A DNA stretch of 64,000 nt from Deltaproteobacteria bacterium (lineage in GTDB: Bacteria > SAR324 > JACQKK01). Made by a program: the position numbers and the translations under genes. The notes under the pieces are model-generated. The model did not search any database. It was not told the DNA's origin and saw nothing but the letters and a program-made list of their open reading frames with translations. The stretch's first letter is position 1, and each line of letters starts with the position of its first letter. The stretch is taken from positions 131,779-195,778 of the forward strand of contig JAOUEW010000004.1 in the NCBI GenBank assembly GCA_029858505.1, written 5' to 3'. Positions 1-21,317 of this stretch are shown piece after piece.

Positions 1-219
1 GGCGGTGGCGGCCAAAAAATCCAGGGCGGTCATGTCATCCAGCGTCCAGGGAATGAACACGGCGTCCATCAGCCGTTCGGCCAGCACCAGCAGGGCTTCA
101 CGGCCGGTTTCGGTTTCCTCCACCATTTGCACCCCGGCCCGGCGCAGGGCCAGGGCCGTGCGGCGGCGGGCCAGCATGTCCGGCCCCGCCACCAGGGCCC
201 GGGGTTTTCCAGCGGTCAT
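1..219 (-). CDS. Partial (N-terminal ~73 aa only) receiver-like domain protein; remainder lies outside the window
   Basis: ATG at 219 overlaps the plsC stop (tcATGa); reverse-strand translation MTAGKPRALVAGPDMLARRRTALALRRAGVQMVEETETGREALLVLAERLMDAVFIPWTLDDMTALDFL resembles a CheY-like REC fold but lacks the N-terminal DD pair. Confidence 0.3.
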   Translation of the reverse strand, partial: MTAGKPRALVAGPDMLARRRTALALRRAGVQMVEETETGREALLVLAERLMDAVFIPWTLDDMTALDFLAATA

Positions 220-1001
220 GCCTTTTGCTCCGGAACTGGCCAGGTGACCCGGATTTCCTCCCACGTTTTGATCATATCCTCCCGCAGGGTTTCCATGAAG
301 GCCTTGGCTTCTGGGGCGGGCATGGGCTTGGGGTGGCGGGGGGGCATGATTTTCATCCGCACCACCCGGCGGCCCAGGGGGGCCGCCCGCCAAGCCGCCG
401 GCTGGGTCAGCAGCCGGGTGCCGTCCAGCACCACGGGAACCAGGGGAATGTTGTGCTCTTCCGATACCCGCAGGCTTCCCCGCCGGAAGACCCCAAATTT
501 TCCCTCCGGGTCCTTGGTGCGGGTGCCTTCGGGGAACACAATCAACCCCTGTTGGCGGAGAATCAGGTGGTCGGCCCAATCCTTCATCCGGTTGAGGGCT
601 TTGCGGTTGTCTTCCCGGTCCAACGATACGCAGCCCAACCGCCGCATCCAAAAGGTGAGCACGGGGATGTAAAACAGCTGCTTCTTAGCCACGAAAGCCA
701 CCGGGCGGGGGAGAGTGACCAGCAGGGGAATGTCTAAATTCGACTGATGGTTGGCCATCAACAGAAAGGGGCCGCTGGTGGGCAGGTTTTCCAGGCCCAG
801 AATTTCAATCCGGGTTCCCAAGTTGGCCATCAATTCTTTTCCCCACAGGTTAAAACGGTTTTCCAAGAACCGCCACACGGTCAGGTTCCCCCAGAACCAT
901 TCCATGGGGTACAAAAATGGGGCATAGAACACCATCAGGATAAAAATCTTCATGAACTGAAATCCCCCCAGCACGGTCATTTGTACGATGGTCCACATCA
1001 T
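216..1001 (-). CDS. plsC: 1-acyl-sn-glycerol-3-phosphate acyltransferase (PlsC/LPLAT family)
   Basis: 261 aa; acyltransferase motif I NHQSNLD (H-x4-D) and motif III FPEGTR present in the translation; N-terminal TM segment. Confidence 0.8.
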   Translation of the reverse strand: MMWTIVQMTVLGGFQFMKIFILMVFYAPFLYPMEWFWGNLTVWRFLENRFNLWGKELMANLGTRIEILGLENLPTSGPFLLMANHQSNLDIPLLVTLPRPVAFVAKKQLFYIPVLTFWMRRLGCVSLDREDNRKALNRMKDWADHLILRQQGLIVFPEGTRTKDPEGKFGVFRRGSLRVSEEHNIPLVPVVLDGTRLLTQPAAWRAAPLGRRVVRMKIMPPRHPKPMPAPEAKAFMETLREDMIKTWEEIRVTWPVPEQKA

Positions 1002-1059
1002 GCGGTATCCTGGCTTGCGCGGTGAAAGAGAAAAGGGTGTTGGGCCATTATTTCTTCCT

Positions 1060-1800
1060 TCAGTCTACATCATCTACGCCCCACGAGTCTGAATGCCGAT
1101 AGGTTTTCCAGGCCACGGGCAGCAGGGCCATGGCCCCCAGGGCCATGAACAACACCAGCAGCCGGGGGGTGAAAATATCCTCTGGGCGGCTGACCCGGCC
1201 CAACTCTTGCCCCGCCGTGACCAGCACCCAGGTGATGGGCAGCATGCCCACCATGGTTCCAACCATGAATACCCGGTATGGCAAGGGGGTGACCCCCATG
1301 GTCAGGTTCACCAGAAAAAACGGAACCACCGACACCATGCGAAGAAACAACAGAAACGACAACCCATGGCGAGACACCTGAAGGTTCACTTTGTCCAGGC
1401 GGGTTCCCATCCGCCGGGCCACCCACCCCCCAAATAAATACCGCGCGGAAAAAAAACCCAACGAGGCCCCGCCGGTGGCGGCCAGCACGCACAACACCAA
1501 CCCCCAAACCCACCCAAACAAAATTCCCGCCAGCATGGTCATGCCTGCCGCCAGCGGGGGGGGCAGGGCACAGGCCAGGGCGTACAACGAGAAAAATACC
1601 AGGCTAAACCCCCAGGGTTGGCGGTGATAGAGGTTGATGAGGCGCTCTTTTTGGGCCTCTAGGGCCTGATGGGTGACCAGGGCGGGAAGATCCAGCCCGT
1701 ACACCAGCAAAATTCCAGCGGCAATGGCCAGAGCCGCCACCACCCGGAGCAGGGGAACCCGGGCGCGGTCGGGGGAAAGATGGCGTGGGGCAGAGGTCAT
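1060..1800 (-). CDS. TVP38/TMEM64 (DedA-related, SNARE-associated) family membrane protein
   Basis: 246 aa, multiple TM helices, conserved G-rich stretch (GILFGWVWG...GASLGFFSARYLFG) typical of YdjX/TVP38 proteins; start overlaps the hsp20 stop (ATGA). Confidence 0.7.
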   Translation of the reverse strand: MTSAPRHLSPDRARVPLLRVVAALAIAAGILLVYGLDLPALVTHQALEAQKERLINLYHRQPWGFSLVFFSLYALACALPPPLAAGMTMLAGILFGWVWGLVLCVLAATGGASLGFFSARYLFGGWVARRMGTRLDKVNLQVSRHGLSFLLFLRMVSVVPFFLVNLTMGVTPLPYRVFMVGTMVGMLPITWVLVTAGQELGRVSRPEDIFTPRLLVLFMALGAMALLPVAWKTYRHSDSWGVDDVD

Positions 1801-2300
1801 GAGCCGGTGGTGGGGGTTTTTCCGGGAGTAGCCCGGCCCAACTTGATTTTCAGGTGCAGCACACCGTGTTCCAAGCGCTGTTCCATTCCCCGTAACAAGG
1901 TGCCTTCCGGCAGGGTAAACTGGCTGGCAAAAGGGCCAAAAGCCCGGTTACGTTCCTTTCCTTCGGGGTTTTGGATCTGAATGGGAACGGGTTTGTGACC
2001 TTCCACGGAGACCATCCGCCCCCCGGGGGAGGTGACCTGGATGGAGGAGGCCGGAACCCCTGGAACTTCCAAATCAATATACAGATATCGCCCCAACCGG
2101 TACAGATCGAAGGTGGGAGACCAGCCTTTTTCCCGCCCTTCCCGGCGTTCCAGATGGCGGCCCTTCTCGGCCAACTGCTGGATGGCGTCATCCAGGTGGA
2201 CTGCCTTTTGCATTATTTGGGATACATCGTCTGGCAAGTTACCAGCCAGATCGTGCTCAGACAGGGTGTTGGGCGTTGGAGGGGGGGTTGCTCTGGGCAT
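1797..2300 (-). CDS. Hsp20/alpha-crystallin family small heat-shock protein
   Basis: 167 aa; alpha-crystallin core (WSPTFDLY..YLYIDLEVPGV..IQVT..LHLKI) recognisable; 4-bp overlap with the downstream gene suggests an operon. Confidence 0.75.
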   Translation of the reverse strand: MPRATPPPTPNTLSEHDLAGNLPDDVSQIMQKAVHLDDAIQQLAEKGRHLERREGREKGWSPTFDLYRLGRYLYIDLEVPGVPASSIQVTSPGGRMVSVEGHKPVPIQIQNPEGKERNRAFGPFASQFTLPEGTLLRGMEQRLEHGVLHLKIKLGRATPGKTPTTGS

Positions 2301-2336
2301 GGGCGGCCCTGCCGTGAAAGAAACTGGAGCGGTGAA

Positions 2337-2363
2337 AATTGGTCTTCCTTAGAGAAACCAATT
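2337..2363. promoter_or_regulatory. Perfect 7-bp inverted repeat aattggt-N13-accaatt 37-63 nt upstream of the hsp20 start; candidate operator
   Basis: Seen directly in the sequence; not a CIRCE or HAIR consensus. Confidence 0.3.
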
Positions 2364-2535
2364 ACTTGCAAAGTCTGGTGAAAACGCATCTTTGGCAAAA
2401 CGGGTCAAAAGGCCCAACATGCAGTAAAATATCAATAGAACCATTGAAATTTGAACGTATCGAGAATATCTAACGTAAACCATTGTATTCAAAACCATCG
2501 TTTGTTTCAACGATCCCTTTGTTTACACAGCCTAC

Positions 2536-3120
2536 GTGAACCCGCTTATGTTTGCAAAAAAAACCATCTCTGTGTTGATGTCTTTCGCCCTGATCACCGC
2601 CATGATGGCGCCGCCGCTGTTGGCCCAAGAGGAAGACTTCTATGATTCGGATTCTCTGACCGAGGATGCCGATGGCGGGGATTACTCTTTTGAGCCCGCC
2701 GCCCAGGACCCCATGGGTGAGGGTTCCGAAGGGGGAGCTTACTCCGAAGAACTTCCCATGATGGCTCCCGATGAATTCGGCGATTCCACCGCTCCGCGGA
2801 AAAAATTCCGGCTGAAAATGGGGGCGGAACGAGATTTGGTTCCCCTGAACGCCGCCTGGGGGGCGGCCACGGGCCTGCTGCTGGGCAGCTGGCTGGCTTT
2901 GATTTCCAACAGCGACAGCCGAACGACCCAGCGGTCGGTGGGGCTGGGCATTGTGTTGGGGTCGGCCATGGGGGTTGCCGTGGGAATGCGCTCCATCATC
3001 CGACCGGACATTCAACCGGGAACCGCCATGGAAGATGAAGACAGTTCGGAAAATTCGTTTACCCCGCGGTTGGCCTTGGGAGACAACCAAGTGTCTGTGG
3101 GGGTGGGGTTCCAGTTTTAG
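2536..3120 (+). CDS. Hypothetical exported/membrane protein (signal peptide, acidic low-complexity region, two Gly-rich hydrophobic segments)
   Basis: 194-aa ORF with N-terminal hydrophobic leader ending AQEE; no recognisable catalytic motif. Confidence 0.45.
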   Translation: MNPLMFAKKTISVLMSFALITAMMAPPLLAQEEDFYDSDSLTEDADGGDYSFEPAAQDPMGEGSEGGAYSEELPMMAPDEFGDSTAPRKKFRLKMGAERDLVPLNAAWGAATGLLLGSWLALISNSDSRTTQRSVGLGIVLGSAMGVAVGMRSIIRPDIQPGTAMEDEDSSENSFTPRLALGDNQVSVGVGFQF

Positions 3121-3160
3121 TCATGGTTTTCAATCCAAGCGAGACCTTTGATTCATTAAT

Positions 3161-3270
3161 TTCCCCCTTCCCCCTTCCTCCAGGGAAGGGGGTTGATTTT
3201 AGGGGGAGGTTTCACCCCCCACTCCCCCCTTTCACGGCAAAAACCCTGGGGATGCAGAGGTTTTGGAGTT
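3161..3270 (+). repeat. Dispersed intergenic repeat family A, copy 1 (G/C-tract hairpin element)
   Basis: ~110 bp sharing ccttcc..gggaaggggg(t/a)tgatttta..gggg..cccc..ccccctttcacggcaaaaa(c/t)cc..g..t(g/a)(c/t)agaggttt with copies at 44375-44480 (same orientation) and 40425-40530 (reverse complement). Confidence 0.6.
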
Positions 3271-3317
3271 TTAAATCTGAGCTGGTTACTTTTTATTTAG
3301 GAATAAATATTTAGGGT

Positions 3318-3364
3318 AAAACAACAAAGCCCCCTTCGCTTGACTGCGAAGGGGGCTTTGTTGT
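3318..3364 (-). terminator. Intrinsic terminator of rpoC (perfect 19-bp stem acaacaaagcccccttcgc / gcgaagggggctttgttgt, 6-nt loop, T-rich tail on the minus strand)
   Basis: Perfect inverted repeat 24 nt downstream of the rpoC stop; A-tract/T-tract on both sides, so it may act bidirectionally. Confidence 0.8.
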
Positions 3365-3390
3365 TTAGGGGGTATAAGGGGGGCAGGCGC

Positions 3391-7575
<4,185 letters not shown>

Positions 7576-7945
7576 TCAATCTGTTTGGTGAATCCGTTTT
7601 GCAAATATGTTCTGTACATCTGTTCTTTTTACCTGCCTGTAAATTCCGCCTGTTTACTTTTTTCTGTTTTGCTTTCCGTGACGATCTCGTGTTTCGTTTA
7701 CCGCAGAAAGGCAAAGGCGGACTTCATTTTGCCCCCAGTGACGGGGGATACATCAACCAGCATTTCTTTCCGCCAACGCGGCTGGTTTTTCCTTGGCTGT
7801 ATCCCGATGCCCTTCCCCTCCCCGATTATCCATTGGCAAATTTTTGATCAAAACCACCGGTGATTCCATAGGGCCCAAATTCGGGATTTACCGGCAGAGA
7901 TCACCGGCTTCCTGTTCAAGTCAAATCCCAGGAGGACGGTTCCGA

Positions 7946-10900
7946 CTATTCAGCCTGGGGGGGCAATTCTTTCAGTAGCCGCACGTCGAGGCACAAGCTT
8001 TTCAGCTCGTTGGTCAGCACCTTGAAGGCTTCGGGGATGCCCGATTCCAACACGTAGTTGCCCTTCACGATGGCCTCGTAAATGCGGTTCCGGCCCATGA
8101 TGTCGTCGGACTTCACGGTGAGCAGTTCTTGCAGGGTATAGCTGGAACCGTAGGCCTGCAGGGCCCAAACCTCCATTTCCCCGAAGCGCTGCCCGCCGAA
8201 CTGGGCCTTGCCGCCCAGGGGCTGCTGGGTAACCAGCGAATAGGGCCCAATGGAGCGGGCGTGGATTTTGTCGTCGACCAAGTGGTGCAGTTTCAGCATG
8301 TAAATATAGCCCACGGTGACCTTCTGCTCGAAGGAGTCTCCGGTCAGGCCGTCATACAGGGTCACCTGGCCGTCTTCCGGCAGGCCCGCCAGCCGGAACA
8401 GGCGGTGCACGTCGTCTTCCCGGGCGCCGTCGAACACGGGCGTGGCCAGGGTAAACCCGGTGATGTAGCGCTGGGCAAAGGTCATCATCTGGTGGTCGTC
8501 CAGCGAATCCAGGTATTCGCTCACCATCTTCGAATCGTAAATATTTTTAATGAAGTCGCGAATTTTGTTCACCGGGTGGTTGCGGGCGATCATGTCGTCC
8601 AGCTGGCTGCCCAGGGCTTTGGCGGCCCAACCCAGGTGGGTTTCCAGCACCTGGCCCACGTTCATGCGGCTGGGCACCCCCAGGGGGTTCAGCACGATGT
8701 CCAGGGGGCGGCCGTCTTTCATGTAGGGCATGTTTTCCACCGGCTCGATGCGAGACACCACGCCCTTGTTGCCGTGGCGGCCGGCCATTTTGTCGCCCAC
8801 GGAAAGCTTGCGCTTGATGGCGATGTACACCTTGACCATCCGGATGACCCCAGGGGGCAGTTCATCGCCGCGCATCAGTTTGTCGCAGCGGTCCTGGTAA
8901 ATCGACTCCAGCAGGTCCATCTGGGTCAGGGCGTTGTTGATGATCTGGGTGATTTTGGGGTTAATCTTCTCGTCACCCACGGTCACGTCTTTCCAGCTTT
9001 TGTTGGGGATGTCTTCCAGCATGGCCGCGGTGATTTTGGCGCCAGCCTTGAACAACACCTCGTTCGAGTCGGGGCGCACCACGTCGTAGAGCAACTTGTT
9101 GCCCACCAGAATGTCGCGCACGATTTTGATCAGGTTGCTGCGAACGATACGGATTTCGTCGTTGTAGTCTTTTTCGTAGCGCGCCAACAGTTCTTCTTCG
9201 ATTTGGCGGGTACGGGCGTCTTTTTCAACCCCTTTGCGGTTGAAGATCACCACGTTGGTCACCACGCCTTCAATGCCTTGAGACACCCGCAGGGAGGTAT
9301 CGCGGACGTCTCCGGCTTTCTCGCCGAAAATGGCCCGCAGCAGTTTTTCTTCGGGGTTCAGCTGGGTTTCACCCTTGGGGGTCACCTTACCCACCAGCAC
9401 GTCGCCCGGCTTTACGTAAGTGCCGATGCGGACGATGCCGGAGTCGTCCAGGTTGCGCAGGGCTTCTTCGCTAACGTTGGGGATGTCGCGGGTGATGTCT
9501 TCTTTGCCCAGCTTGGTGTCGCGGGCCACCACTTCAAATTCTTCGATGTGGATGGAAGTGAACAGGTCCTCCCGCACCACCCGCTCGGAAATCAGGATGG
9601 AGTCTTCGAAGTTGTAGCCATTCCAGGGCATGAAGGCCACCAGCAGGTTTTGGCCCAGGGCCAACTCGCCTTGGTCGCAGGAGGGGCCGTCGGCGATGAT
9701 GTCGCCCTTTTCCACCCGCTGGCCCAGGTTCACGATGGGCCGCTGGTTGATGCAGGTATTCTGGTTCGAGCGGCGGTACTTGGCCAGGTGGTAGATATCC
9801 ACGTTGGCTGGCACCACCACTTCATCGGAAGACAAGTCCACGTCGGCCTGGATGACCACCCGGCCTGAATCAATGCGGTCCACCACGCCAGAGCGCTTGG
9901 AGGCCACCAGGGCGCCGGAGTCTTTGGCAATCCGGGCTTCCATGCCGGTGCCCACCAGGGGGGCCTGGGGGCGGATCAGCGGCACGGCTTGGCGCTGCAT
10001 GTTCGATCCCATCAGGGCGCGGTTGGCGTCGTCGTGCTCCAGGAAGGGAATGAGCGACGCGGCGGCGGACACGATTTGCTTGGGCGAGACGTCCATGAAC
10101 TCAATCTCGGCCCGGTTCATCATGGTGAACTCGCCGTGATGGCGGGAGGACACCAATTCGTTGGTTAAGTGGCCCTTGGCGTCGAAGGGGGCGTTGGCCT
10201 GGGCAATTTTGAACAGGTCTTCCTCGATGGCCGACAAAAACCGGATTTCATCGCTCACGTTGCCGTCCGCCACCTTGCGGTAGGGAGATTCGATAAATCC
10301 AAAGTCGTTGATGCGGGCATAGGTGGCCAGAGAGGCGATCAGGCCGATGTTCGGGCCTTCCGGGGTTTCCACCGGGCAAATGCGGCCGTAATGGGAAGAG
10401 TGCACGTCGCGCACGTCGAAGCCCGCCCGCTCCCGGGTTAAGCCGCCTGGCCCCAGGGCGCTGAGGCGCCGCTTGTGGGTGACTTCCGACAGGGGGTTGG
10501 TTTGGTCCATGAACTGCGACAACTGGGAAGACCCGAAGAACTCGTTGATGACCGCCGCCACCGGCTTGGCGTTCACGATGTCGTGCAGCATCATGGATTC
10601 GGTTTCTTGCAGGCTCATGCGTTCTTTCACGGCCCGCTCCATGCGCACCAGCCCAATGCGGAACTGGTTTTCCAGCAGCTCGCCCACCCCGCGAATGCGG
10701 CGGTTGCCCAGGTGGTCAATGTCGTCCACAAAGCCGTCTACCCCTTCTTTCAGGGTCAGCAGATAGCCCACCGTGCGCAGAATGTCTTCTTTGGTCAGCA
10801 CGGTGTTTTCCAGGGGTTCTTCCAGCCCCAGCTTCTTGTTGATTTTCAGGCGGCCCACTTTCGACAGGCTGTAACGGTCCTCGTTGAAGAACATGTTGAA

Positions 10901-12588: not shown

Positions 12589-13080
12589 ATGAAAACCAAG
12601 ATCATGCGATGGCCAGTGTTGGGTGTGGCGTTCGGAATAGGTCTGCTGATGGCCTGGGAGCCCCACCCCGCTGTGGCCATGGGGGAAGGGGAGGCCTTAG
12701 GAGGGCTGATTGAACTATCGTTTGATTTGTCCTCGACCACGACTGAAATCATGCTATGGAAAGACAAACAGGATGAAGAAAAAGAAAGGGATGAGAAAAA
12801 GAAGGGGGCGGAAACCCCCTCCGCCACCCAGCGGGAATACTTGAGACGAGAGGGAGAAAATCTGGCTCAGGAAGCCGCCCAGGGGGGCGGAGAGCGCTTG
12901 GTGGTGGTGGCCGAATGGATGGGCTGCCCGGCAAAAATTCACCCGGCGTTTTTCCGGGCAATACAGGCCAAGCAGCCGGGTCTGTTCTTTTCCGGCGCCA
13001 ACCCAGACGCCACCTGGGCGGGCATTCGTGAAACCGTGCGCCAAACCCCGGAACTGGCTGCCCGGTGCCAGGCGCCTTGA
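12589..13080 (+). CDS. Hypothetical secreted protein
   Basis: 163-aa ORF with N-terminal signal-like hydrophobic segment and a Lys/Glu-rich low-complexity stretch; plausible RBS (aggagag) upstream. Confidence 0.45.
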   Translation: MKTKIMRWPVLGVAFGIGLLMAWEPHPAVAMGEGEALGGLIELSFDLSSTTTEIMLWKDKQDEEKERDEKKKGAETPSATQREYLRREGENLAQEAAQGGGERLVVVAEWMGCPAKIHPAFFRAIQAKQPGLFFSGANPDATWAGIRETVRQTPELAARCQAP

Positions 13081-14533: not shown

Positions 14534-15016
14534 ATGATGAAAAAGATGGCTGTTATTTCCATGGTGTTTGGCTTGGCTTTGGCCGGCAACGCCATGGCCA
14601 CTGCCGACGGCGCCGGTTGCGGTGTGGGTCAGCAACTTTTCAAAGGTAAAACCGGATTGGTCAACCATGTGTTGGCCTTCTCTGTCAACGGAACCTTTTC
14701 TGGCACTTCTTCCATTACCTCTGGCACCTCTGGCTGCCATGCCAACGACTCCACCCTGATGCGCGAAAAAGAGCAGCGCGAGTTCATTTCCCTGAACCAG
14801 GACAACCTGTCTTTGGATATGGCCCAAGGCCGCGGTGAGTATCTCTCCACGCTGACTGGCCTGATGGGCTGCTCGGTGGAAGCCCAAGGCGACTTCGCCC
14901 GGATGACCCAGTCCAAGTACGCTGAATTGGCTGGTTCTTCCGACATGCTGAACGCCATCAAAAGCGAACTGGCTGCCGATCCTAAACTGGCCAAAGCTTG
15001 CAGCCGGATTTCCTAA
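14534..15016 (+). CDS. Small secreted four-cysteine protein, DUF3015-like (family assignment from memory)
   Basis: 160 aa, signal peptide, four Cys at conserved spacing (GAGCGVG, TSGCHAND, LMGCSVEA, KACSRIS); paralog of the next gene. Confidence 0.6.
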   Translation: MMKKMAVISMVFGLALAGNAMATADGAGCGVGQQLFKGKTGLVNHVLAFSVNGTFSGTSSITSGTSGCHANDSTLMREKEQREFISLNQDNLSLDMAQGRGEYLSTLTGLMGCSVEAQGDFARMTQSKYAELAGSSDMLNAIKSELAADPKLAKACSRIS

Positions 15017-15071
15017 TCATTTTCCGGGCCGGAGGACGTTCCCCCGGACGGTTTAAACATCCAGATTCATC

Positions 15072-15578
15072 ATGGAGAATACAATGAAAAAACTCATCGG
15101 ATTGGTGATTGCCCTGGGGCTGTTTGCCCCCATGGCCATGGCCGACAACGGCGGTGCTGCCTGCGGTATTGGTGCCACCCTGTTGCGGGGCAAAAGCGGC
15201 GTGGGCCCCCACCTGTCGGCAACCTTTACGGACAGCTTTGTGGAGTACGGTAACTTGCTGTCTTTGACCACCGGAAACTTTAAGCCTGGGTTCTTGGGCT
15301 GCGACCCCAAAAACTCCGTGATCCAACGGGATATGGAGCGCCGGGACTTCGCCAAAGCCAACCAAGAAAACCTCTCCCGCGACATGGCCGCTGGACAGGG
15401 CGAATACCTGAGCACTTTCTCCGGCATGATGGGCTGCTCTCCTGAAGCCCAAGCTCAGTTTGCCCGGGTGATGCAGGCCAAATACAGCAAAATTTCCGCC
15501 AACGCCGACATGGTGGAAGCGGTGAAACTGGAAATGGCCGCCGATCCTCGGTTGGCTTCCGCTTGCAGCCTGTCTTAA
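15072..15578 (+). CDS. Small secreted four-cysteine protein, DUF3015-like paralog
   Basis: 168 aa; collinear with the previous ORF incl. all four Cys (AACGIG, FLGCDPKN, MMGCSPEA, SACSLS) and the shared block GEYLST..GMMGCS.EAQ..FAR..Q.KY. Confidence 0.6.
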   Translation: MENTMKKLIGLVIALGLFAPMAMADNGGAACGIGATLLRGKSGVGPHLSATFTDSFVEYGNLLSLTTGNFKPGFLGCDPKNSVIQRDMERRDFAKANQENLSRDMAAGQGEYLSTFSGMMGCSPEAQAQFARVMQAKYSKISANADMVEAVKLEMAADPRLASACSLS

Positions 15579-15602
15579 TTTGTCTTTTTTTGGCTGAAAC
15601 GA

Positions 15603-15637
15603 ACCGCCCTTCACGCAAGTGGAGGGCGGTTTTTTTA
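15603..15637 (+). terminator. Rho-independent terminator after the DUF3015 pair (ccgcccttcac-gcaa-gtggagggcgg + T7)
   Basis: 11-bp stem with a GCAA tetraloop followed by ttttttt. Confidence 0.8.
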
Positions 15638-15759
15638 TGGGGTTTTATTTCCCGGTGAATACCCGGTAAGATTTTTGGGTTACGTCTTTTTTGGCGTTCG
15701 GTTTTTCCTCCAATCATTCGGCTACGGCTGTCTGCCCAATCAACTTTCTTCATTTCCCT

Positions 15760-17784
15760 ATGCGCAAAATTTATTTACTTCCTTTGTTCTTGATGGCCTG
15801 GGGGTTGGCGGCCCTTCCGGCGCTGGCCCAGCAATCCGAGGAACCCAAACCAATTATCGCTACCTATGTTCCCCGGAACCCTCAAGAGGGATTGACCCCG
15901 ATTCAATTGGAGCGACTGGCCCAGTTGATGAAAAAGGCCGAGGAAAAAGACCTGTGGAACAACTCGTACTGGCACACGCTGCTGCGATACCAAAAGGGCT
16001 GGTTTGGCGGGGTGAAAAGCCAGGCAGATTCGCCGGTTTTCTTCTTCTCTCCGCAGGGCAAGACCAACCCTAAGGCCGAATTGGAGGCCAATGTGGCGGC
16101 GTTCTTCATGGACAAGCCAGGTTGGAACCGGATGGCGGTTACACCTCAATGTGCGTTTCCTGCCCGCTACCGCTGGCTAAAGGAACAACTGGAATTTAAC
16201 CCCATTTGGATACCCGAACAGACATGCCCAGAGTTTGAATATTGGCGGAAGCAAATTGATATCCAATCCGTGACCTTCATTTACAGCTCTTTTTACATCA
16301 ACAGCCCGGTTTCTGCTTTTGGCCATACCTTCGTTCGGTTGGACAACAAAAAACACACCGATGACCAACGGCTGATGGACCGTGCCATCAATTTTGCCGC
16401 GGCCATCCCCGAGGAAGATACCCATGGGGTCATGTGGGTTTTTTACGGGCTGTTTGGCGGCTACCCCGGGGTGTTCAGCCAGTCACCCTATTACATGAAA
16501 GTGTTGGAATACAGCGACTCTGAAAAACGGGATTTGTGGGAATACCGATTAAACTTTACGCAGGAGGAAAACGACCGGGTGGTAGCTCACCTGTGGGAAA
16601 TGCAATGGGTGTATTTTGATTATTACTTCTTTGATGAAAATTGCTCGTACCATATGCTGCCGGTTTTGGAGGCAGCCCGGCCCGGCCTGAACATGAGGGA
16701 TCATTACCTGCTGTTTACTTTGCCCACCGACACCGTGAGAGATGTGGCCACGGAACCTGGTTTGGTGAGTAAGGTCACCTACCGACCCAGCCGCCTTTCT
16801 CAGATGAAAAAACGGGTGGACATGGTTCCCCCCGCGTTGCGGAGCTTGGCGGATGATCTGGCGGAAAATCCAGCCCTGTATGAAACCCCCGAAGTCAAGG
16901 GGTTAGATGATCCCAGCCGAATCGCCATGCTCGACGCGGCTGTGGAGCGGATCAGGATTCACCTGGATGTAGGGGAACAGACCCCCAACACCGAGCAAAC
17001 TGCGCTTCGCCAGAAACTGAGCCAATTGTTGCTGTTTCGCTCGCAGATACCGGTAGCCAGCCCGCCCATGGACTTTACCCCCTGGCCCCCCAAGGTGGAA
17101 GAAGGTCATAAACCCAGCCGACTGGCGTTGTCGGGTGGGGGCTGGGAGGTTCCGGGGGTGCCCGGAATCCCCACGAGGTTTACTCGGGTGAGCCTGATGC
17201 CGGTGTTTCAAGAGATGCTGTCGGATGATCGGGGGTATGCCGAAAACAGCCAAGTGATCATGTTTCATCTGCAAGGCCGCTATGATGAAGAGACGAAACA
17301 GGGATATTTTGAAAAATTTGACGTGCTAGACGTCATATCCCTGGTGCCATTGTCCAGCGTGCAAAAAACCATGTCCTGGCAGTTTTCTGGGGGTTGGCAT
17401 GATTACGTGGAAACCCCCTGCCCCAACTGTTTGCAGGCTTATTTAAAGGCAGGTTTTGGTTACGCCTTGCAATCTCACGCCTGGGAGCGGGAAACCTTTG
17501 CCCTGATGGGGGGTGCCACCCTGAATGCTGGGCCCATGTTTGATCAGGGCCGGCGGGCGGATGCGTGGGTGGAGGGCTCGTTTTACCTGAACTTGGCGCC
17601 ATGGTGGCGCATGGGTTTTGTGGGGTCCCGCATTGCCCGGGGCAACAACACCCCCGACCCGATGGTGAACGAAGGGTCCTTCCGCCAGCGGTTGACCCTA
17701 AGCCAAAACTGGGAGCTACGCACCGATGTGACCCTGCGTACCGGTCGGCAAGAAGCTTCTGCCGGGCTGGGGTGGTGGTTTTAA
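15760..17784 (+). CDS. DUF4105 (Lnb N-terminal periplasmic domain-like) protein with C-terminal outer-membrane beta-barrel-type ending
   Basis: ~675 aa from MRKIYLLPLFLMAWGLAALPALA (signal peptide); N-terminal region matches the DUF4105 pattern as I recall it; protein ends ...GLGWWF (aromatic C-terminal residue typical of OMPs). The ORF track starts 23 codons earlier at 15691. Confidence 0.55.
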   Translation: MRKIYLLPLFLMAWGLAALPALAQQSEEPKPIIATYVPRNPQEGLTPIQLERLAQLMKKAEEKDLWNNSYWHTLLRYQKGWFGGVKSQADSPVFFFSPQGKTNPKAELEANVAAFFMDKPGWNRMAVTPQCAFPARYRWLKEQLEFNPIWIPEQTCPEFEYWRKQIDIQSVTFIYSSFYINSPVSAFGHTFVRLDNKKHTDDQRLMDRAINFAAAIPEEDTHGVMWVFYGLFGGYPGVFSQSPYYMKVLEYSDSEKRDLWEYRLNFTQEENDRVVAHLWEMQWVYFDYYFFDENCSYHMLPVLEAARPGLNMRDHYLLFTLPTDTVRDVATEPGLVSKVTYRPSRLSQMKKRVDMVPPALRSLADDLAENPALYETPEVKGLDDPSRIAMLDAAVERIRIHLDVGEQTPNTEQTALRQKLSQLLLFRSQIPVASPPMDFTPWPPKVEEGHKPSRLALSGGGWEVPGVPGIPTRFTRVSLMPVFQEMLSDDRGYAENSQVIMFHLQGRYDEETKQGYFEKFDVLDVISLVPLSSVQKTMSWQFSGGWHDYVETPCPNCLQAYLKAGFGYALQSHAWERETFALMGGATLNAGPMFDQGRRADAWVEGSFYLNLAPWWRMGFVGSRIARGNNTPDPMVNEGSFRQRLTLSQNWELRTDVTLRTGRQEASAGLGWWF

Positions 17785-17844
17785 GGGAGGCTTTGAGGGA
17801 CGCCGCCTGAAAGGTGGCAGGGAGGGGTAACGTTGTAAACATCC

Positions 17845-18726
17845 ATGTCTGGGGCTTTCATGACGACTCGGATGACGATGGGGCTGGCCGGGGTGTTGGC
17901 CGGACTGCTGGCCATGATGCTCGGCGGCTGCGATTCGCTGTTCTATCAACCCAGCCGGGCCATGACCGCCACCCCGGAGAATATCCATCTGGCCTACTCT
18001 GACCTGTGGCTGGAAAGCCCAGGTCAGCCCAAGCTCCACGGCTGGCTGCTGCCCGCCAAGGGCCCCCGCAAGGGGTGGGTGGTGGTGTTCCACGGCAACG
18101 CGGCCAATATTTCGAATCACATGTATGGGGTGCATTGGCTCCCTGGCGAAGGCTACTCGGTGATGGTTTGGGATTACCGGGGCTATGGCCGCAGCGCGGG
18201 AGAGCCCGACCGGGAAGGCTTGGTGAACGATGGAGAGCGGGCCCTGGCCAAGGCCCGTGAACTGGCGGGCAACGAACCCCTGTTTGTTTATGGCCAAAGC
18301 CTGGGGGGGGCCGTGGCCCTGGCCACCTTGGGTAAAACCGGCATCACGGGCCTGAACGGGCTGATTCTGGAATCCACCTTTGGCTCTTACCGGGCGATGG
18401 CCAGGGAAAAAATGAGCGAGCTGTGGCCCCTGTGGCCGATTCAATACCCCTTGTCTTGGCTGCTGATCTCTGAGGAGTGGAACGGCGAAGACCCTCTTCC
18501 CAAGCTGGCGGCCCTTCCTCTGCTGGTGGCTCACCAGGTGGATGACCCGGTGGTGTCATTCGACAATGGGAAGCGCCTGTTTGATTCCTTCCCTGGCGCC
18601 GACAAAACCTTCCTCCCCTTGGATGAGGACGGGCATATCAGCGTGTTTGCCCCCAAATACAGCCCCTACCGCAAGCCATTGCTCGATTGGATGGACAAAC
18701 GGCGGCAGAGAACCCCAGCCCCCTAA
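17845..18726 (+). CDS. Alpha/beta-hydrolase fold lipoprotein (esterase/peptidase-like)
   Basis: 293 aa; lipobox LGGC; nucleophile elbow GQSLGG, conserved HGNAAN oxyanion region, Asp and His downstream. Confidence 0.7.
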   Translation: MSGAFMTTRMTMGLAGVLAGLLAMMLGGCDSLFYQPSRAMTATPENIHLAYSDLWLESPGQPKLHGWLLPAKGPRKGWVVVFHGNAANISNHMYGVHWLPGEGYSVMVWDYRGYGRSAGEPDREGLVNDGERALAKARELAGNEPLFVYGQSLGGAVALATLGKTGITGLNGLILESTFGSYRAMAREKMSELWPLWPIQYPLSWLLISEEWNGEDPLPKLAALPLLVAHQVDDPVVSFDNGKRLFDSFPGADKTFLPLDEDGHISVFAPKYSPYRKPLLDWMDKRRQRTPAP

Positions 18727-18879
18727 AACCCGCTGCCCTGCTTTCCCTCTTCCTTCCCCCCTTCCCCCTTCCCCCCACTCTATTCTCGCCCTTCCCCTCA
18801 CTCCAAAACGCTTGGTTTTTTGTTGTGCCACCCACCTGAGGGTTGGATGTCTCGGTGCTGACTAGAAATATTCCCTGGT

Positions 18880-19420
18880 CTTTCGCAATTTCATAAAAAG
18901 GGAGTTATTTGGACATTTCTCGTTTAACCGAATAGAACAAAGCACAGGCATATTTCCGCAAAGTCACATGGAGATGGATGAAAAGAATAACTTATATAAG
19001 TAAAAATACATAATAATTAGTATTTTTAGGTGAAACAACGGACCGTGTTATTATAAGTAATATATACTTAAATGAATATATTCACATGGGCCATCTGTTC
19101 ATATTTTCATTGATTATTTTTACATATACGCTTAAAAGGAACGTTAGACAGATAGAATACCAAACAGAGATATAGTTCAGTAATATATACTCATTCTTGT
19201 TCTCAATAAAAAAACTTTTCGTTATAAGTGGTAAATTAACTTATTTTCGTATATTTACTTGGAGCTGTGTTTTGTGGAAAGGCATTGGCAGGAAAAAACC
19301 GGAATAGGTTCCAATAAAAACAAAACATATCAATTTGATATGAATAGATAGGCCCAAGTAAGCCAGGGACGGGAAACGTCATCCATCCGCCTTGGATTCT
19401 GAAACGGTTGAAGTTTGATC
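18880..19420. other. AT-rich (~30% GC) non-coding island in a ~60% GC genome, with short repeated motifs (ttataagt x3, gtaatatatact x2)
   Basis: Composition shift visible directly; no ORF >15 codons with a plausible start; sits immediately upstream of the CI-like regulator gene. Confidence 0.7.
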
Positions 19421-19487
19421 CGTGAAAGGGTGGGGAAGGATCGAATTGGATGGTTTCCCTACAATCTTTTTTCGAAAGATCAACATC

Positions 19488-19934
19488 ATGGCTACTCCCC
19501 AAACGCTTCATGACATTATTGAGCGTGTTGAATATTTGCGGACGTTTTTGGGGTTAAACAAAAGCCGATTTTCCGGGGAAATTGGCCTGAAACCCCAAAC
19601 CTACAATAATTTTATTGGGGCCCAGGGCAGCAAGCCCAGCATTGAATTGGTGATGGGGGTGGTGCAGCGGTTTGGGGTCAACCCCACTTGGGTGCTGACC
19701 GGGGGTGGGGGTATGTTTCAGGACGAGGTCAGTGAGAAACGAGCCCTGGAAACCCTGCGGGGGGGGAGTTATGATTCTGTGGTGGCCGATTCGTACCAGC
19801 GGGAAAAAGACAGCAAACGCCGGGAGGATGTGATGGAGAACTTGCTTAAAAAAATGGAAACCTTTGAAGAGACCCTGCGGCAGATGGACCAGCGCCTTCA
19901 GCAGATGGGAAACCCGCAAGATACGAAACGATAA
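19488..19934 (+). CDS. Phage CI-repressor-type HTH transcriptional regulator (N-terminal HTH, C-terminal charged coiled-coil; no peptidase S24 domain)
   Basis: 148 aa from MATPQTL; LNKSRFSGEIGLKPQTYNNF HTH followed by GVNPTWVLTG, which is the NP.W(L/V)L.G signature of the Phage_CI_repr family; GC lower than flanking genes. The ORF track starts at 19422. Confidence 0.6.
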   Translation: MATPQTLHDIIERVEYLRTFLGLNKSRFSGEIGLKPQTYNNFIGAQGSKPSIELVMGVVQRFGVNPTWVLTGGGGMFQDEVSEKRALETLRGGSYDSVVADSYQREKDSKRREDVMENLLKKMETFEETLRQMDQRLQQMGNPQDTKR

Positions 19935-20159: not shown

Positions 20160-21317
20160 ATGGCTTTCGCCACGGGACAACCCATCAGCCCCATGCTGGG
20201 GGCTTTGTCTCAATATCAAATTCTGTTGGTGGACGATGACCCCACCAACTTGCAGGTGTTGTCGAACTGCTTAATGCCCCAGGGATACCGTCTGCTGCAT
20301 GCCACCCATGGCGAGCGGGCCCTTTCCATTTGCCAAAACACCACCCCCGACTTGGTGCTGCTGGACGTTGGACTGCCCGGCATGGATGGGTTCGAGGTCT
20401 GCCGTCAGTTAAAAGCCCTTCGAAGTTTGGCCGATACTCCGGTGGTGTTTTTGTCGGCGTTTAAAGACTCGGCCAGCAAGGTGAAGGGGTTTCAGGCCGG
20501 GGGGGTGGACTATGTGGATAAACCGTTTAACTACGATGAACTGTTGGCCCGGGTGGAAACCCACCTCACCCTGAAAATCGCCCGGCAAAAACTGGCCCGC
20601 CAAAACGAAGAAATTGAAAGCCTGCTGCACGTGCTTTCCCACGATTTGTCGAACCCCCTTTCGGCCATCATGGGGTTCTGCCAGCTGGCTTCCATTCTGC
20701 CCACCTATCAAGACCCCGACACCCAAGAATTGTGGCGCAACGTGCATCTGGCCCTGGCCCAGCAAGAGGAAATTATCGAGCACGTGCGCGAAATGCGGGC
20801 GTTGGAAATGGGCAAGAAGACCATCGAGCTTACGCCGGTGAACCTGGGAGATTCGCTGCTGACCGTGGCGAAAATTTTTCATCATAAGCTGAGCGAAAAG
20901 CAAATCCATCTCGATTTACAACTGACTCCTGAAAAGGAAAACTGGAAGGTAATGGCGGAGTACACCAGCCTGACCCACAACGTGATGAGCAATCTGGTGT
21001 CGAACGCCATCAAGTTTTCCGACCGGGGAAAGACCGTGTCCATTTCTCTGGAGGAAGAACCTGTGGGGAAGATTCACCTGTCGGTGGCCGACCAGGGGAT
21101 TGGCATTCCTGATGATCTGTTGAAAACCATCTTTTCCAACGACCAGCCCACCAGCCGGCCCGGCACCGAAATGGAACTGGGCACCGGGTTTGGCATGCCC
21201 CTGGTGAAAAAATACGTGGAGATTTACGGGGGAGAGATCGAAGTGGAAAGCATGTCTCGGGTGAGCGGAGGGGGCACCAGCGGCACCACCATTCATCTGC
21301 GCTTGAAGCGGGCCTAA
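20160..21317 (+). CDS. Hybrid response-regulator receiver / histidine kinase (REC-HisKA-HATPase_c), soluble, no sensor domain
   Basis: 385 aa; REC with phospho-acceptor context LLDVGLPGMDG; H-box LSHDLSNPLSAI; N, G1 (DQGIGIP) and G2 (GTGFGMPLV) boxes. Confidence 0.85.
   Translation: MAFATGQPISPMLGALSQYQILLVDDDPTNLQVLSNCLMPQGYRLLHATHGERALSICQNTTPDLVLLDVGLPGMDGFEVCRQLKALRSLADTPVVFLSAFKDSASKVKGFQAGGVDYVDKPFNYDELLARVETHLTLKIARQKLARQNEEIESLLHVLSHDLSNPLSAIMGFCQLASILPTYQDPDTQELWRNVHLALAQQEEIIEHVREMRALEMGKKTIELTPVNLGDSLLTVAKIFHHKLSEKQIHLDLQLTPEKENWKVMAEYTSLTHNVMSNLVSNAIKFSDRGKTVSISLEEEPVGKIHLSVADQGIGIPDDLLKTIFSNDQPTSRPGTEMELGTGFGMPLVKKYVEIYGGEIEVESMSRVSGGGTSGTTIHLRLKRA

Follow-up and report, generated by a model that had tools for sequence, protein, structure and literature searches.

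The genes for small secreted DUF3015 proteins, a terminator-like hairpin behind the last of them and the gene for an outer membrane (OM) β-barrel enzyme form a conserved, chromosomally inherited envelope module and not a chance neighborhood. The window, which is the whole 64-kb stretch of DNA analyzed here, contains this module together with the gene for a lipoprotein hydrolase. We give an even chance to the reading that the barrel enzyme is an OM-anchored, periplasm-facing enzyme that transfers or hydrolyzes phospholipid acyl groups, with DUF3015 as its abundant, dedicated partner.

Gene content of the locus

The features of the locus are as follows.

12589 to 13080, plus strand: DUF3015c, a third paralog, upstream of ribF (PF11220, E = 1.8e-9)
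14534 to 15016, plus strand: DUF3015a, 160 aa (PF11220, E = 1.5e-33, 116 bits)
15072 to 15578, plus strand: DUF3015b, 168 aa (PF11220, E = 1.2e-23, 84 bits)
15601 to 15640, plus strand: intrinsic-terminator-like hairpin that separates the last DUF3015 gene from the barrel-enzyme gene
15760 to 17784, plus strand: barrel-enzyme gene, 674 aa from the ATG (PF13387, 175 bits)
16324 to 16326, plus strand: codon of His189, the predicted catalytic histidine of the barrel enzyme
16642 to 16644, plus strand: codon of Cys295, its predicted acyl-thioester nucleophile, in the invariant motif E-N-C-S-Y
17119 to 17781, plus strand: β-barrel membrane anchor, 12 strands (DSSP), with a C-terminal aromatic residue
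17845 to 18726, plus strand: lipoprotein alpha/beta hydrolase, 293 aa (PF12146, Hydrolase_4, E = 6.9e-20, 72 bits)

The four open reading frames from DUF3015a to the hydrolase gene, the GLGWWF end of the barrel enzyme and the LGGC lipobox of the hydrolase, all described in an initial annotation, were found again. In an HMM search against Pfam, all four of its family assignments were above the gathering thresholds. Each of the four products carries a signal peptide or a lipobox. An independent gene call placed the start of DUF3015b at 15084, which yields 164 aa, and the barrel gene starts either at 15691 (TTG) or at 15760 (ATG), with the 674 aa of the NCBI record matching the ATG.

The GC contents are 0.551 for DUF3015a, 0.580 for DUF3015b, 0.548 for the barrel gene and 0.618 for the hydrolase gene. 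The block, described in the initial annotation as lower in GC than its flanks, is not low throughout, and the deviations are not significant, being inside the ordinary spread of the 1-kb windows of the 64 kb (mean 0.585, s.d. 0.043). The GC content of the cluster is not anomalous and does not indicate a foreign origin.

Linkage of the DUF3015 and barrel genes across genomes

A DUF3015 gene is located directly upstream of the barrel gene and on the same strand in 73 of the 80 best-scoring genome loci, which are mostly from Nitrospirota. The linked loci span at least five phyla, including Nitrospirota, Nitrospinota, Proteobacteria, and Desulfobacterota. Four of the seven unlinked loci are contig edges, and the remaining three barrel genes (L011, L075, and L080) have no DUF3015 gene nearby. 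In the reverse search, 59 of the 62 informative metagenome loci had the barrel gene immediately behind DUF3015; the DUF3015 loci L101, L124, and L125 are without a nearby barrel gene. The pair is also present in NC10, SAR324, and Bdellovibrionota with differing flanking genes, is adjacent amid wholly different flanks in Gamma-, Beta-, and Alphaproteobacteria, Desulfobacterota, and Nitrospinota, and overlaps by 4 bp in Competibacteraceae. Co-occurrence of DUF3015 and DUF4105, the former name of the Lnb_N domain of the barrel enzyme, had been raised as a question to be tested across taxa, and the gene-neighborhood analysis finds it in many phyla and in both search directions.

The hairpin behind the last DUF3015 gene

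The strong terminator postulated downstream of the DUF3015 pair is borne out by a stem-loop at 15601 to 15632 with a 14-bp stem, 8 GC pairs and a 4-nt loop, followed by TTTTTTT. When hairpins of −18 kcal/mol or stronger not more than 100 nt past the last DUF3015 stop codon were scored, 92% of 134 loci possessed one, compared to 5% in shuffled sequence. Two control sites also scored low, the region behind the barrel gene with 12% and the spacers of tandem DUF3015 copies with 10%. At least four T residues were among the next 8 nt in 72% of the strong hairpins. The hairpin is a conserved part of the module. Conservation of a terminator at this position argues against a strict 1:1 co-expression of both genes, so that a stoichiometric complex of DUF3015 and the barrel enzyme is not implied. 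We propose that DUF3015 would be in molar excess because most transcripts would end at the hairpin.

The DUF3015 proteins

DUF3015a and DUF3015b are 45% identical (BLASTP, E = 2e-47). Cysteines 29, 68, 113, and 156 of DUF3015a align with 31, 77, 122, and 165 of DUF3015b, which verifies, together with the common block G(R/Q)GEYLST..G(L/M)MGCS.EAQ, that these are two paralogs with four positionally conserved cysteines. Across homologs, the four-cysteine pattern is the trait of a subfamily, and the Cys1/Cys2 and Cys3/Cys4 pairs come and go independently. DUF3015a is Sec-exported and contains a Gly/Ser/Thr-rich conserved N-terminal region between Cys29 and Cys68, followed by a C-terminal helical bundle with Cys113, Cys156, and the GxGE motif at residues 99 to 102, of which G99 and G101 are invariant among the homologs and E102 is conserved in at least 90%. 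In the AF2 model, residues 70 to 160 are helical with a pLDDT of about 97, and residues 23 to 68 remain below 50. The mature N-terminus is not conserved. Short forms of DUF3015 combine a lipobox with a flexible Ser/Thr/Gly linker, an arrangement that would put the helical domain at a membrane face.

Tandem copies of DUF3015 occur in 25 of the 80 genome loci, and solo genes also occur. One of these is DUF3015c at 12589 to 13080, which the initial annotation had overlooked. Its product has a signal peptide and matches PF11220 at profile positions 57 to 142, with 31% identity to DUF3015a across the helical half. The helical GxGE domain is kept, with cysteines only at residues 113 and 160, corresponding to Cys3 and Cys4, and the N-terminal Cys1-Cys2 region is exchanged for a charged low-complexity linker.

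The barrel enzyme

The barrel enzyme is composed of a signal peptide (residues 1 to 24), DUF7843 (about 64 to 143) with the invariant Cys131 and Cys156, Lnb_N (about 158 to 330), a helical hairpin (345 to 428), DUF7840 (454 to 673), and Phe674. As had been predicted for an OMP-type protein, DUF7840 is a 12-stranded β-barrel in the AF2 model (pLDDT 92.3, pTM 0.90), with alternating hydrophobic and polar residues along the strands. The last residue is F in 72 and Y in 3 of 81 homologs. The barrel also matches Tsx, NanC, and KdgM, which are not autotransporter barrels, equally well. No pore-spanning helix was predicted before strand 1, residues 429 to 453 being a Pro-rich coil.

The Lnb_N domain has a permuted NlpC/P60 fold and in structure resembles TseH and YiiX, themselves permuted members, most closely. 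His189, Asn294, and Cys295 showed no variation in a set of 120 homologs or in a set of 81; Asn211, the candidate third catalytic residue, is conserved in 75 of 81. In Bacteroides, Lnb_N forms the permuted NlpC/P60 catalytic domain of the lipoprotein N-acyltransferase Lnb, which N-acylates lipoproteins and requires Cys148 (bioRxiv 10.1101/2024.05.31.596883). The statement that all proteins of the cluster are of unknown function consequently no longer applies to the DUF4105 part; literature searches found no biochemical or genetic data on barrel-type Lnb_N or DUF3015 proteins. Tox-Act1, from a sister clade, cuts acyl chains from PG and PE and produces lysophospholipids, and lipids are general targets of permuted NlpC/P60 enzymes (PMC12994826).

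The lipoprotein hydrolase

The hydrolase contains the lipobox MLGG-Cys29 with Asp at +2 and the nucleophile elbow GQS152LG. The top hits in NCBIfam and PDB are weak and point in different directions (proline iminopeptidase, monoacylglycerol lipase, and MenH), and the protein has no lysophospholipase-specific signature; among solved structures, it is closest to proline iminopeptidases and monoacylglycerol lipases (E = 3e-8 to 6e-8). Its identity as a cluster member was upheld by PF12146 and the lipobox, but not a constant co-occurrence: lipobox-bearing orthologs (E of 1e-38 or better) adjoin the pair in 12 of the 80 genome loci, from several classes and in downstream, upstream, or divergent arrangement, and are missing from most. 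One more adjoins the pair in a Bdellovibrionota contig. The hydrolase is a facultative third member of the module.

Comparison with known systems

Lnb (NF051878) and the barrel enzyme share the PF13387 permuted NlpC/P60 domain, TseH as best solved structural match, and the arrangement His...Asn...Cys (H49/N66/C148 in Lnb, H189/N211/C295 here). By residue order and spacing and not by direct alignment to Lnb, His189 would be the equivalent of Lnb His49. For both proteins, the predicted site of action is an extracytoplasmic membrane surface. Lnb, however, has about 398 aa with five inner-membrane transmembrane helices, compared to 674 aa with a 12-stranded OM barrel plus the additional DUF7843 and helical hairpin, and the barrel enzyme reached only 17.6 bits with the Lnb equivalog model, which has a cut-off of 550. 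A DUF3015 partner is not described for Lnb, and the barrel enzyme is found in Proteobacteria, where the canonical Lnt is already present.

Tox-Act1 and TseH are type VI secretion system (T6SS) toxins delivered into rivals and come with immunity proteins, whereas the barrel enzyme is a resident OM protein with wide and stable inheritance, and 79 of the 80 barrel-gene loci show no secretion-system context. In OMPLA (PldA), LpxR, PagP, and PagL, the active site belongs to the barrel and works on the outer leaflet or lipid A. The barrel of the present enzyme seems only to anchor a distinct Cys-His domain of soluble type, and no sequence relationship to these four was detectable. EstA displays a GDSL serine esterase passenger on the surface with a pore-spanning helix (type Va), in contrast to the Cys-His NlpC/P60 domain, the lack of a predicted pore helix, and the periplasmic partners of the barrel enzyme. 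The Aat/Cex system similarly combines a dedicated N-acyltransferase-family enzyme, AatD, with the small Sec-exported Aap/CexE in an operon with an OM component (PMC7943197), but AatD is an inner-membrane CN-hydrolase (Lnt) homolog, the substrate begins with an N-terminal glycine, and a TolC-like channel and an ABC transporter carry out the export. The present module contains none of these components.

Alternative explanations

Adjacency due only to the shared ancestry of close genomes, with no functional link, is extremely improbable and already contradicted by the cross-phylum data. Synteny could account for many of the 80 best-scoring loci, dominated as they are by Nitrospirota, but not for a pair adjacent across phyla with different flanks, linkage in both search directions, and a specific conserved intergenic hairpin. 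It is very unlikely that the NlpC/P60 domain cuts peptidoglycan stem peptides or processes DUF3015 instead of acting on lipids. Cell-wall amidases and peptidases are numerous in the superfamily, DUF4105 is listed with uncharacterized families in a survey of papain-like folds (PMC10318531), and TseH was initially proposed as an endopeptidase (PMC12994826). The domain is nevertheless of the permuted type, with H189 before C295 and the permuted TseH and YiiX as top structural matches, and lipid acyl groups are what the characterized permuted members LRAT/PLAAT, YiiX-like, Tox-Act1, and Lnb target (PMC12994826; bioRxiv 10.1101/2024.05.31.596883). Export of the DUF7843/NlpC-P60 part as a passenger through or alongside its own barrel, as in EstA, to work at the cell surface or against other cells is quite improbable, although the module adjoins vgrG-type T6SS genes in one SAR324 contig. 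A pore-spanning helix is not predicted, the barrel matches Tsx, NanC, and KdgM equally, the homologous Lnb domain acts on the periplasmic side (bioRxiv 10.1101/2024.05.31.596883), and DUF3015 and the hydrolase carry only Sec or lipoprotein signals, which argues for periplasmic action.

DUF3015 may itself be the acyl acceptor, its N-terminal region being acylated from phospholipid by the barrel-anchored Lnb-like domain to yield a non-canonical lipoprotein, OM-anchored or threaded into the OM through the barrel. We consider this unlikely. The order of small precursors, often in tandem, then terminator and enzyme is typical of substrate/modifying-enzyme operons, and a dedicated acyltransferase for one small secreted protein has a precedent in the nearest analog, Aat/Cex, where AatD acylates Aap/CexE (PMC7943197). 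The strongly conserved segment GCGLG...TTNGT...ITSGTSGC is predicted to be disordered alone (pLDDT <50), which fits folding or modification on a partner, and its replacement by an ordinary lipobox anchor in some lineages suggests an anchoring job. The full catalytic set, however, is kept even where the DUF3015 partner is such a short form, a classical lipoprotein without the segment, so that acylation of the segment cannot be the sole function. Moreover, neither Cys1 nor Cys2 is gained or lost without the other, which is expected of a disulfide and not of a free acyl acceptor, and the mature N-terminus varies. A similarly small probability is assigned to a latent OM phospholipase, OMPLA-like in function, with abundant periplasmic DUF3015 as its inhibitor or gatekeeper until envelope stress. 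TseH and Tox-Act1, the closest characterized relatives, are membrane-damaging lipases neutralized by small cognate immunity proteins (PMC12994826), an excess of DUF3015 from terminator and duplication would suit an inhibitor, and the invariant GxGE is acidic and on a compact helical domain. DUF3015 genes found alone, including DUF3015c, and the three barrel genes without a nearby DUF3015 do not agree with this explanation, and a structural comparison of DUF3015 with known immunity proteins found no similarity.

Proposed mechanism

The core of the module consists of one to three DUF3015 genes, the terminator or attenuator hairpin, and the barrel-enzyme gene. In the preferred reading of an OM-anchored acyl-transferring or -hydrolyzing enzyme, the barrel would tether the catalytic domain to the OM on the inner side, where His189 and probably Asn211 would activate Cys295 for an attack on an acyl ester, either in a glycerophospholipid or in a lipoprotein lipid. 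This would generate a thioester and release a lyso-lipid, and the acyl chain would be handed on to an acceptor, as by a transferase, or to water, as by a phospholipase A. With its invariant GxGE helical domain, DUF3015 would act as the dedicated partner at the same membrane face, most likely by presenting or accepting the substrate or by gating the activity. Where it is found, the hydrolase may remove the lyso-lipid by-product or undo the modification. Overall, the probable function of the module is to remodel lipids of the envelope or lipidated proteins.

Genes of the block and family assignments

All four open reading frames proposed in the initial annotation were found on the forward strand of the window, at the positions claimed there. 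The features of the block and a further paralogue upstream of it are the following:

12589-13080, forward strand: third DUF3015 paralogue, between rpoB and ribF, upstream of ribF
14534-15016, forward strand: DUF3015a, first of the two tandem genes for small exported proteins, open reading frame of 160 amino acids
15072-15578, forward strand: DUF3015b, second tandem gene, open reading frame of 168 amino acids (164 amino acids from position 15084 in a separate gene call)
15601-15640, forward strand: hairpin between DUF3015b and the barrel gene, with a 14-bp GC-rich stem and a T7 tail
15691 (TTG) or 15760 (ATG) to 17784, forward strand: barrel gene, encoding the 674-amino-acid barrel protein from the ATG start
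17845-18726, forward strand: hydrolase gene, open reading frame of 293 amino acids

The family assignments of the initial annotation were supported by Pfam in every case (PF11220, PF13387, and PF12146/PF00561). PF11220 scored 116.2 bits for DUF3015a, 84.0 bits for DUF3015b, and 38.1 bits for the third paralogue, with a gathering cutoff of 25 bits. PF13387 matched the barrel protein with 174.9 bits over profile positions 1 to 173 of 175 (cutoff, 22.2 bits), and this protein additionally contained a DUF7843 domain before and a DUF7840 domain after the PF13387 domain. Its NCBI entry reads [quoted passage not shown] Envelope targeting signals were carried by all four products, and the GLGWWF C terminus of the barrel protein and the lipobox MLGG-C29 of the hydrolase were both present.

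The description of the block as low in GC did not hold. The GC content was 0.551 for DUF3015a, 0.580 for DUF3015b, 0.548 for the barrel gene, and 0.618 for the hydrolase gene, compared to a window mean of 0.585 with a standard deviation of 0.043. An origin by horizontal transfer or as a genomic island was rejected: the GC content of the block was within one standard deviation of the mean, neither repeats nor boundaries of mobile elements flanked the block, and no tRNA or other Rfam element was found near it. Downstream of the hydrolase gene, a 695-bp AT-rich gap (18727-19421; GC content of 0.376 versus the window mean of 0.585) opens with CCCTTCCCC-type pyrimidine repeats at about 18740-18805 and gave no match in an Rfam search. 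It is followed by an HTH_19-like gene (19422-19934) and a gene for a hybrid response regulator/histidine kinase (20160-21317).

Linkage of DUF3015 and barrel genes

The co-occurrence of DUF3015 and DUF4105 genes across taxa, which had been left to a gene-neighborhood analysis, was evaluated from both sides. Starting from the barrel protein, 80 species-representative genome loci of at least 586 were examined, and in 73 of these 80 the gene directly preceding the barrel gene, in the same orientation, was a DUF3015 gene. Contig edges accounted for four of the seven unpaired loci; the remaining three (L011, L075, and L080, the last from Pseudomonas sp. P818) were apparently genuine, with barrel genes devoid of a DUF3015 gene in at least 760 nt upstream. 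Starting from DUF3015, 80 metagenome loci were scanned with a narrow DUF3015 alignment, and a barrel gene followed in 59 of them. The contig ended within 445 bp in 18 of the other 21 loci, and three (L101, L124, and L125) were genuine exceptions, in which the downstream sequence, 1.4 kb or longer, contained no barrel gene. The linkage between the two genes is tight and bidirectional. The six genuinely unpaired loci could act as natural experiments on the mutual dependence of the two proteins.

Paired genome loci were found in Nitrospirota, Nitrospinota, Alphaproteobacteria, Gamma- and Betaproteobacteria (Competibacteraceae, Chromatiaceae, Acidiferrobacterales, Nitrosomonas, Nitrosospira, and Burkholderiales), and Desulfobacterota (Desulfosarcina, Syntrophorhabdus, Geotalea, and Deferrimicrobiaceae). 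In contigs examined in addition, the pair was also found in Bdellovibrionota, SAR324, and NC10, with unrelated flanking genes in each. A chance synteny of the two genes, which would leave them without a functional connection, is contradicted by these cross-phylum data and effectively excluded. The two genes even overlap by 4 bp in a Competibacteraceae genome. Tandem arrangements of two or three DUF3015 copies occurred in 25 of the 80 metagenome loci, and solo DUF3015 genes also exist, including the third paralogue of the window.

Several loci differed in their surroundings. Two tandem Lnb_N-barrel genes (4657-6798 and 7920-9695) were located downstream of two DUF3015 genes in a Nitrospiraceae locus, L055. 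In L086, a SAR324 locus, type VI secretion genes (VgrG-type Phage_GPD/Gp5 and DUF2169/pentapeptide) adjoined the pair (1-4164, reverse strand) back-to-back; this neighborhood was seen in this one locus only and is of interest since TseH and Tox-Act1, the nearest characterized relatives, are type VI secretion effectors. The Competibacteraceae loci L081 to L083 contained a gene for an IS605 OrfB/TnpB (Cas12f-like) protein directly upstream of a short lipobox-type DUF3015 gene, and a DUF1800/DUF1501 pair plus a large polyketide synthase (PKS) gene after the barrel gene. Among the Nitrospira loci (L003 to L057), in 27 Nitrospirota loci the barrel gene was followed, after about 0.1 to 1 kb, by a gene for a small OmpW/OmpA-like OMP_b-brl protein, and in 19 loci a gene for a TRL-like small lipoprotein was near the barrel gene. 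These two neighbors may be additions to the module that are specific to the lineage, or mere synteny. An M48 peptidase, a metallophosphoesterase, and others were not accepted as module members but treated as lineage synteny, being confined to Nitrospira.

The strong terminator noted in the initial annotation was recovered as the hairpin at 15601-15640, and its counterparts were conserved across the module loci.

Best 40-nt hairpins in the module loci
Region; median energy (kcal/mol); share at −18 kcal/mol or stronger
Last DUF3015 stop codon, 100 nt downstream (134 loci); −26.4; 92%
Same regions, shuffled; −11.5; 5%
Downstream of the barrel gene (92 loci); −13.2; 12%
Between DUF3015 genes in tandem (29 loci); −13.9; 10%

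The stem started at a median of 8.5 nt past the DUF3015 stop codon, and 72% of the strong hairpins were followed by at least four T residues in the next 8 nt. The sequence of the stems was not conserved across phyla. The hairpin is a conserved feature of the module and not peculiar to the source genome. In the simplest reading, it is a terminator or attenuator, or alternatively an mRNA-stabilizing 3′ hairpin, and either role would yield far more DUF3015 than enzyme transcript.

DUF3015 proteins

Tandem paralogy of DUF3015a and DUF3015b was evident from 45% identity (E = 2e-47) and from the alignment of their four cysteines. These proteins are small, stand-alone, and exported, with a C-terminal helical domain and the core motif MAxGxGExL, in which G99 and G101 were invariant and E102 was at least 90% conserved in 60 sequences. 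The two glycines were the only invariant residues family-wide. Residues 70 to 160 of DUF3015a were modeled as a helical bundle with a pLDDT of about 97. A profile search of the full library yielded 3,275 representative clusters at 50% identity; the best 150 of these representatives were all stand-alone proteins of 118 to 243 amino acids, and no informative fusion was among them. No NCBIfam model matched DUF3015.

In 120 alignment rows, Cys1 and Cys2 co-occurred, and Cys3 and Cys4 were either both present or both absent. A single member of a pair appeared in none of the rows, except for short forms in which the sole aligned cysteine was that of a lipobox. This pairwise behavior fits two disulfides, as had been suggested from the aligned cysteines of DUF3015a and DUF3015b, but the two pairs are independent of each other, so that the four-cysteine pattern is a trait of a subfamily and not of the whole family. 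Several lineages, among them Competibacteraceae and Desulfosarcina, had a lipobox followed by a Ser/Thr/Gly linker in place of the N-terminal segment. Since this segment is replaceable, the N-terminal part has the look of an exchangeable tether, and the functional core would seem to be the helical domain. The third paralogue kept the helical half with Cys3 and Cys4, and its N-terminal half was replaced by a charged linker. This paralogue also contained a weak second copy of the family motif, VAMGEGEALGGL, at residues 29 to 40 directly after the signal peptide, with the canonical GGGE at residue 99. The second copy may be due to chance (E = 7.3 for the BLASTP subalignment).

Architecture of the barrel protein

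The AlphaFold2 model of the barrel protein, calculated with 120 homologues in the alignment, had a pLDDT of 92.3 and a pTM of 0.90. From the N terminus, it contained a signal-peptide helix, an alpha/beta region including DUF7843, an NlpC/P60-like core, a long helical hairpin (residues 345 to 428), a Pro-rich coil, and twelve beta-strands (residues 454 to 673). The predicted beta-barrel was thereby substantiated: hydrophobic and polar residues alternated in the strands, and the terminal residue was aromatic in 75 of 81 homologues. The protein has the features of integral outer membrane beta-barrels that are BAM substrates: a Sec signal peptide, amphipathic strands in even number, and an aromatic beta-signal at the C terminus. 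A type Va autotransporter would have an alpha-helical linker in the barrel pore and a passenger exposed on the cell surface; the DSSP assignment, which reads out secondary structure, showed only coil at residues 429 to 453, before strand 1. A search of the PDB with the sequence profile of the barrel family gave chance matches only (Max bHLH, E > 0.1).

His189, Asn294, and Cys295 were invariant in 120 of 120 and in 81 of 81 homologues, and Asn211 was present in 75 of 81. The predicted catalytic His is located upstream of the predicted catalytic Cys, which is the permuted order, and both are conserved. Within the DUF7843 region, Cys131 and Cys156 were invariant. A CxxC motif (C554 and C557; positions 17419-17430 of the window) sits in the short loop that connects barrel strands 5 and 6; about 57 of the 81 homologues have it. 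Barrels with this motif adjoined 10 of 10 DUF3015 copies with Cys3/Cys4 versus 41 of 64 of the others, an association confounded by phylogeny. In the barrel protein, a Cys-His NlpC/P60 domain that is exported and belongs to the permuted, lipid-acting type is fused to an outer membrane barrel.

Relation to Lnb and other permuted NlpC/P60 enzymes

To our knowledge, DUF4105 had no known function until 2024. PF13387 is now Lnb_N, the catalytic periplasmic domain of the Bacteroides lipoprotein N-acyltransferase Lnb, with a permuted NlpC/P60 fold and an essential cysteine (bioRxiv 10.1101/2024.05.31.596883; PMC12994826). Lnb is the long-missing lipoprotein N-acyltransferase of the Bacteroidota. It requires Cys148 to N-acylate lipoproteins (PMC12994826; bioRxiv 10.1101/2024.05.31.596883). 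By analogy with Lnt, this reaction would proceed via an acyl-cysteine (thioester) intermediate. Among related enzymes, Tox-Act1 strips acyl chains from PG and PE to leave lysophospholipids, and LRAT/PLAAT enzymes transfer acyl groups from phospholipids (PMC12994826; bioRxiv 10.1101/2024.05.31.596883).

The Lnb triad H49/N66/C148 appears to be mirrored by His189/Asn211/Cys295 of the barrel protein, as judged from residue order and spacing alone. Lnb, however, has about 400 amino acids and about five transmembrane helices in the inner membrane, whereas the barrel protein has 674 amino acids and, in the model, a 12-stranded C-terminal beta-barrel with no transmembrane helix after the signal peptide. 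The Lnb equivalog NF051878 (NCBIfam) matched the barrel protein with 17.6 bits (E = 0.0014) compared to a cutoff of 550. Judged from this score and from the modeled barrel in place of the five transmembrane helices, the barrel protein is not an Lnb orthologue.

Putative lipoprotein hydrolase

The hydrolase matched PF12146 (Hydrolase_4) with 71.8 bits (cutoff, 27) and also PF00561. It contained the nucleophile elbow GQSLG at residues 150 to 154, which was GQS[LI]G in adjacent orthologues, and its signal peptide end, ...LLAMMLGG-C29-DS, fits the lipobox [LVI][ASTVI][GAS]C of a putative lipoprotein. Most adjacent orthologues possessed a lipobox (LSGC, LSSC, LGGC, LTSC, LAGC, or LQGC). As a raw count, homologues were present within 8 kb in 39 of 80 loci. 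The matches in Nitrospira were rejected as orthologues: they lack a signal peptide, have GRSLG in place of GQSLG, and reach E values of only about 1e-20. They are a different, cytoplasmic paralogue, so the association of the hydrolase is much weaker than the raw count implies. True orthologues, defined by E values of 1e-38 or better, GQS[LI]G, and mostly a lipobox, adjoined the pair in 12 of 80 genome loci from several classes plus the Bdellovibrionota contig. They were arranged directly downstream, as in the window, directly upstream, or divergently. Adjacency in several classes and in three arrangements argues for a functional link that is real but facultative.

For an identity as lysophospholipase or monoacylglycerol lipase, no NCBIfam model scored above its cutoff, the best one being proline iminopeptidase (27 bits versus 500). 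PDB matches were weak (E = 3e-8 to 6e-8), and the best matches in both collections were mixed, comprising proline iminopeptidase, monoacylglycerol lipase, and MenH.

Possible function of the module

In the mechanism considered most likely, the barrel would keep the catalytic domain at the outer membrane on its periplasmic side, where Cys295 would remove an acyl chain, either from a phospholipid or from the lipid of a lipoprotein, and then transfer or hydrolyze it. DUF3015, made in excess, may be anchored close to this membrane face, through either its N-terminal segment or a lipid, and serve as a dedicated partner of the enzyme through its GxGE helical domain. The hydrolase would clear the lyso-lipid by-product or reverse the modification. 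A more far-reaching reading, which we consider improbable, is a second, outer membrane-located pathway of protein or lipid acylation in two-membrane bacteria, in which a barrel-anchored Lnb-like Cys-His transferase would move acyl chains of outer membrane phospholipids onto the abundant DUF3015 proteins, or deliver them via DUF3015, and the hydrolase, where present, would recycle the lyso-lipid.

DUF3015 might alternatively be the lipidated substrate, or acyl acceptor, of the enzyme, by analogy with Aat/AatD-Aap (PMC7943197). This explanation lost probability, since the catalytic set was intact where DUF3015 lacked the Cys1-Cys2 segment, and acylation of that segment cannot be the sole function. 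A competing explanation would regard DUF3015 as the inhibitor of a latent outer membrane phospholipase, comparable to the effector-immunity pairs of type VI secretion, and a canonical peptidase or amidase role of the enzyme is a further rival. For the module, nothing observed so far contradicts what is expected of envelope lipid enzymes.

The module is solidly real, and the enzyme is classed as a lipid acyl enzyme of the permuted NlpC/P60 kind, whose outer membrane-anchored, partner-dependent format is new. All of its domain families are already known in Pfam, and the catalytic domain has one characterized relative. In a literature search, neither the barrel-anchored architecture nor DUF3015 nor the association of the two turned out to be the subject of a publication, the sole mention of DUF3015 being a row in a Leptospira expression table (PMC13066512); a search on DUF7840 and DUF7843 found nothing. 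The barrel-fused branch of the Lnb_N family is much larger and differently built, and its genes are nearly always located behind DUF3015 genes and a hairpin. Clustering at 90% identity gives more than 2,600 protein clusters for this branch, which is present in the genomes of at least 586 species. Among its carriers are nitrifiers (Nitrospira, Nitrospina, Nitrosomonas, and Nitrosospira) as well as Competibacter, a wastewater organism. If the second acylation pathway existed, it would mean a new class of noncanonical lipoproteins or a new route of outer membrane lipid homeostasis. If the proposed chemistry is true, the module would be an unrecognized system for remodeling outer membrane lipids or lipoproteins and would provide the first functional context for DUF3015, DUF7843, and DUF7840.
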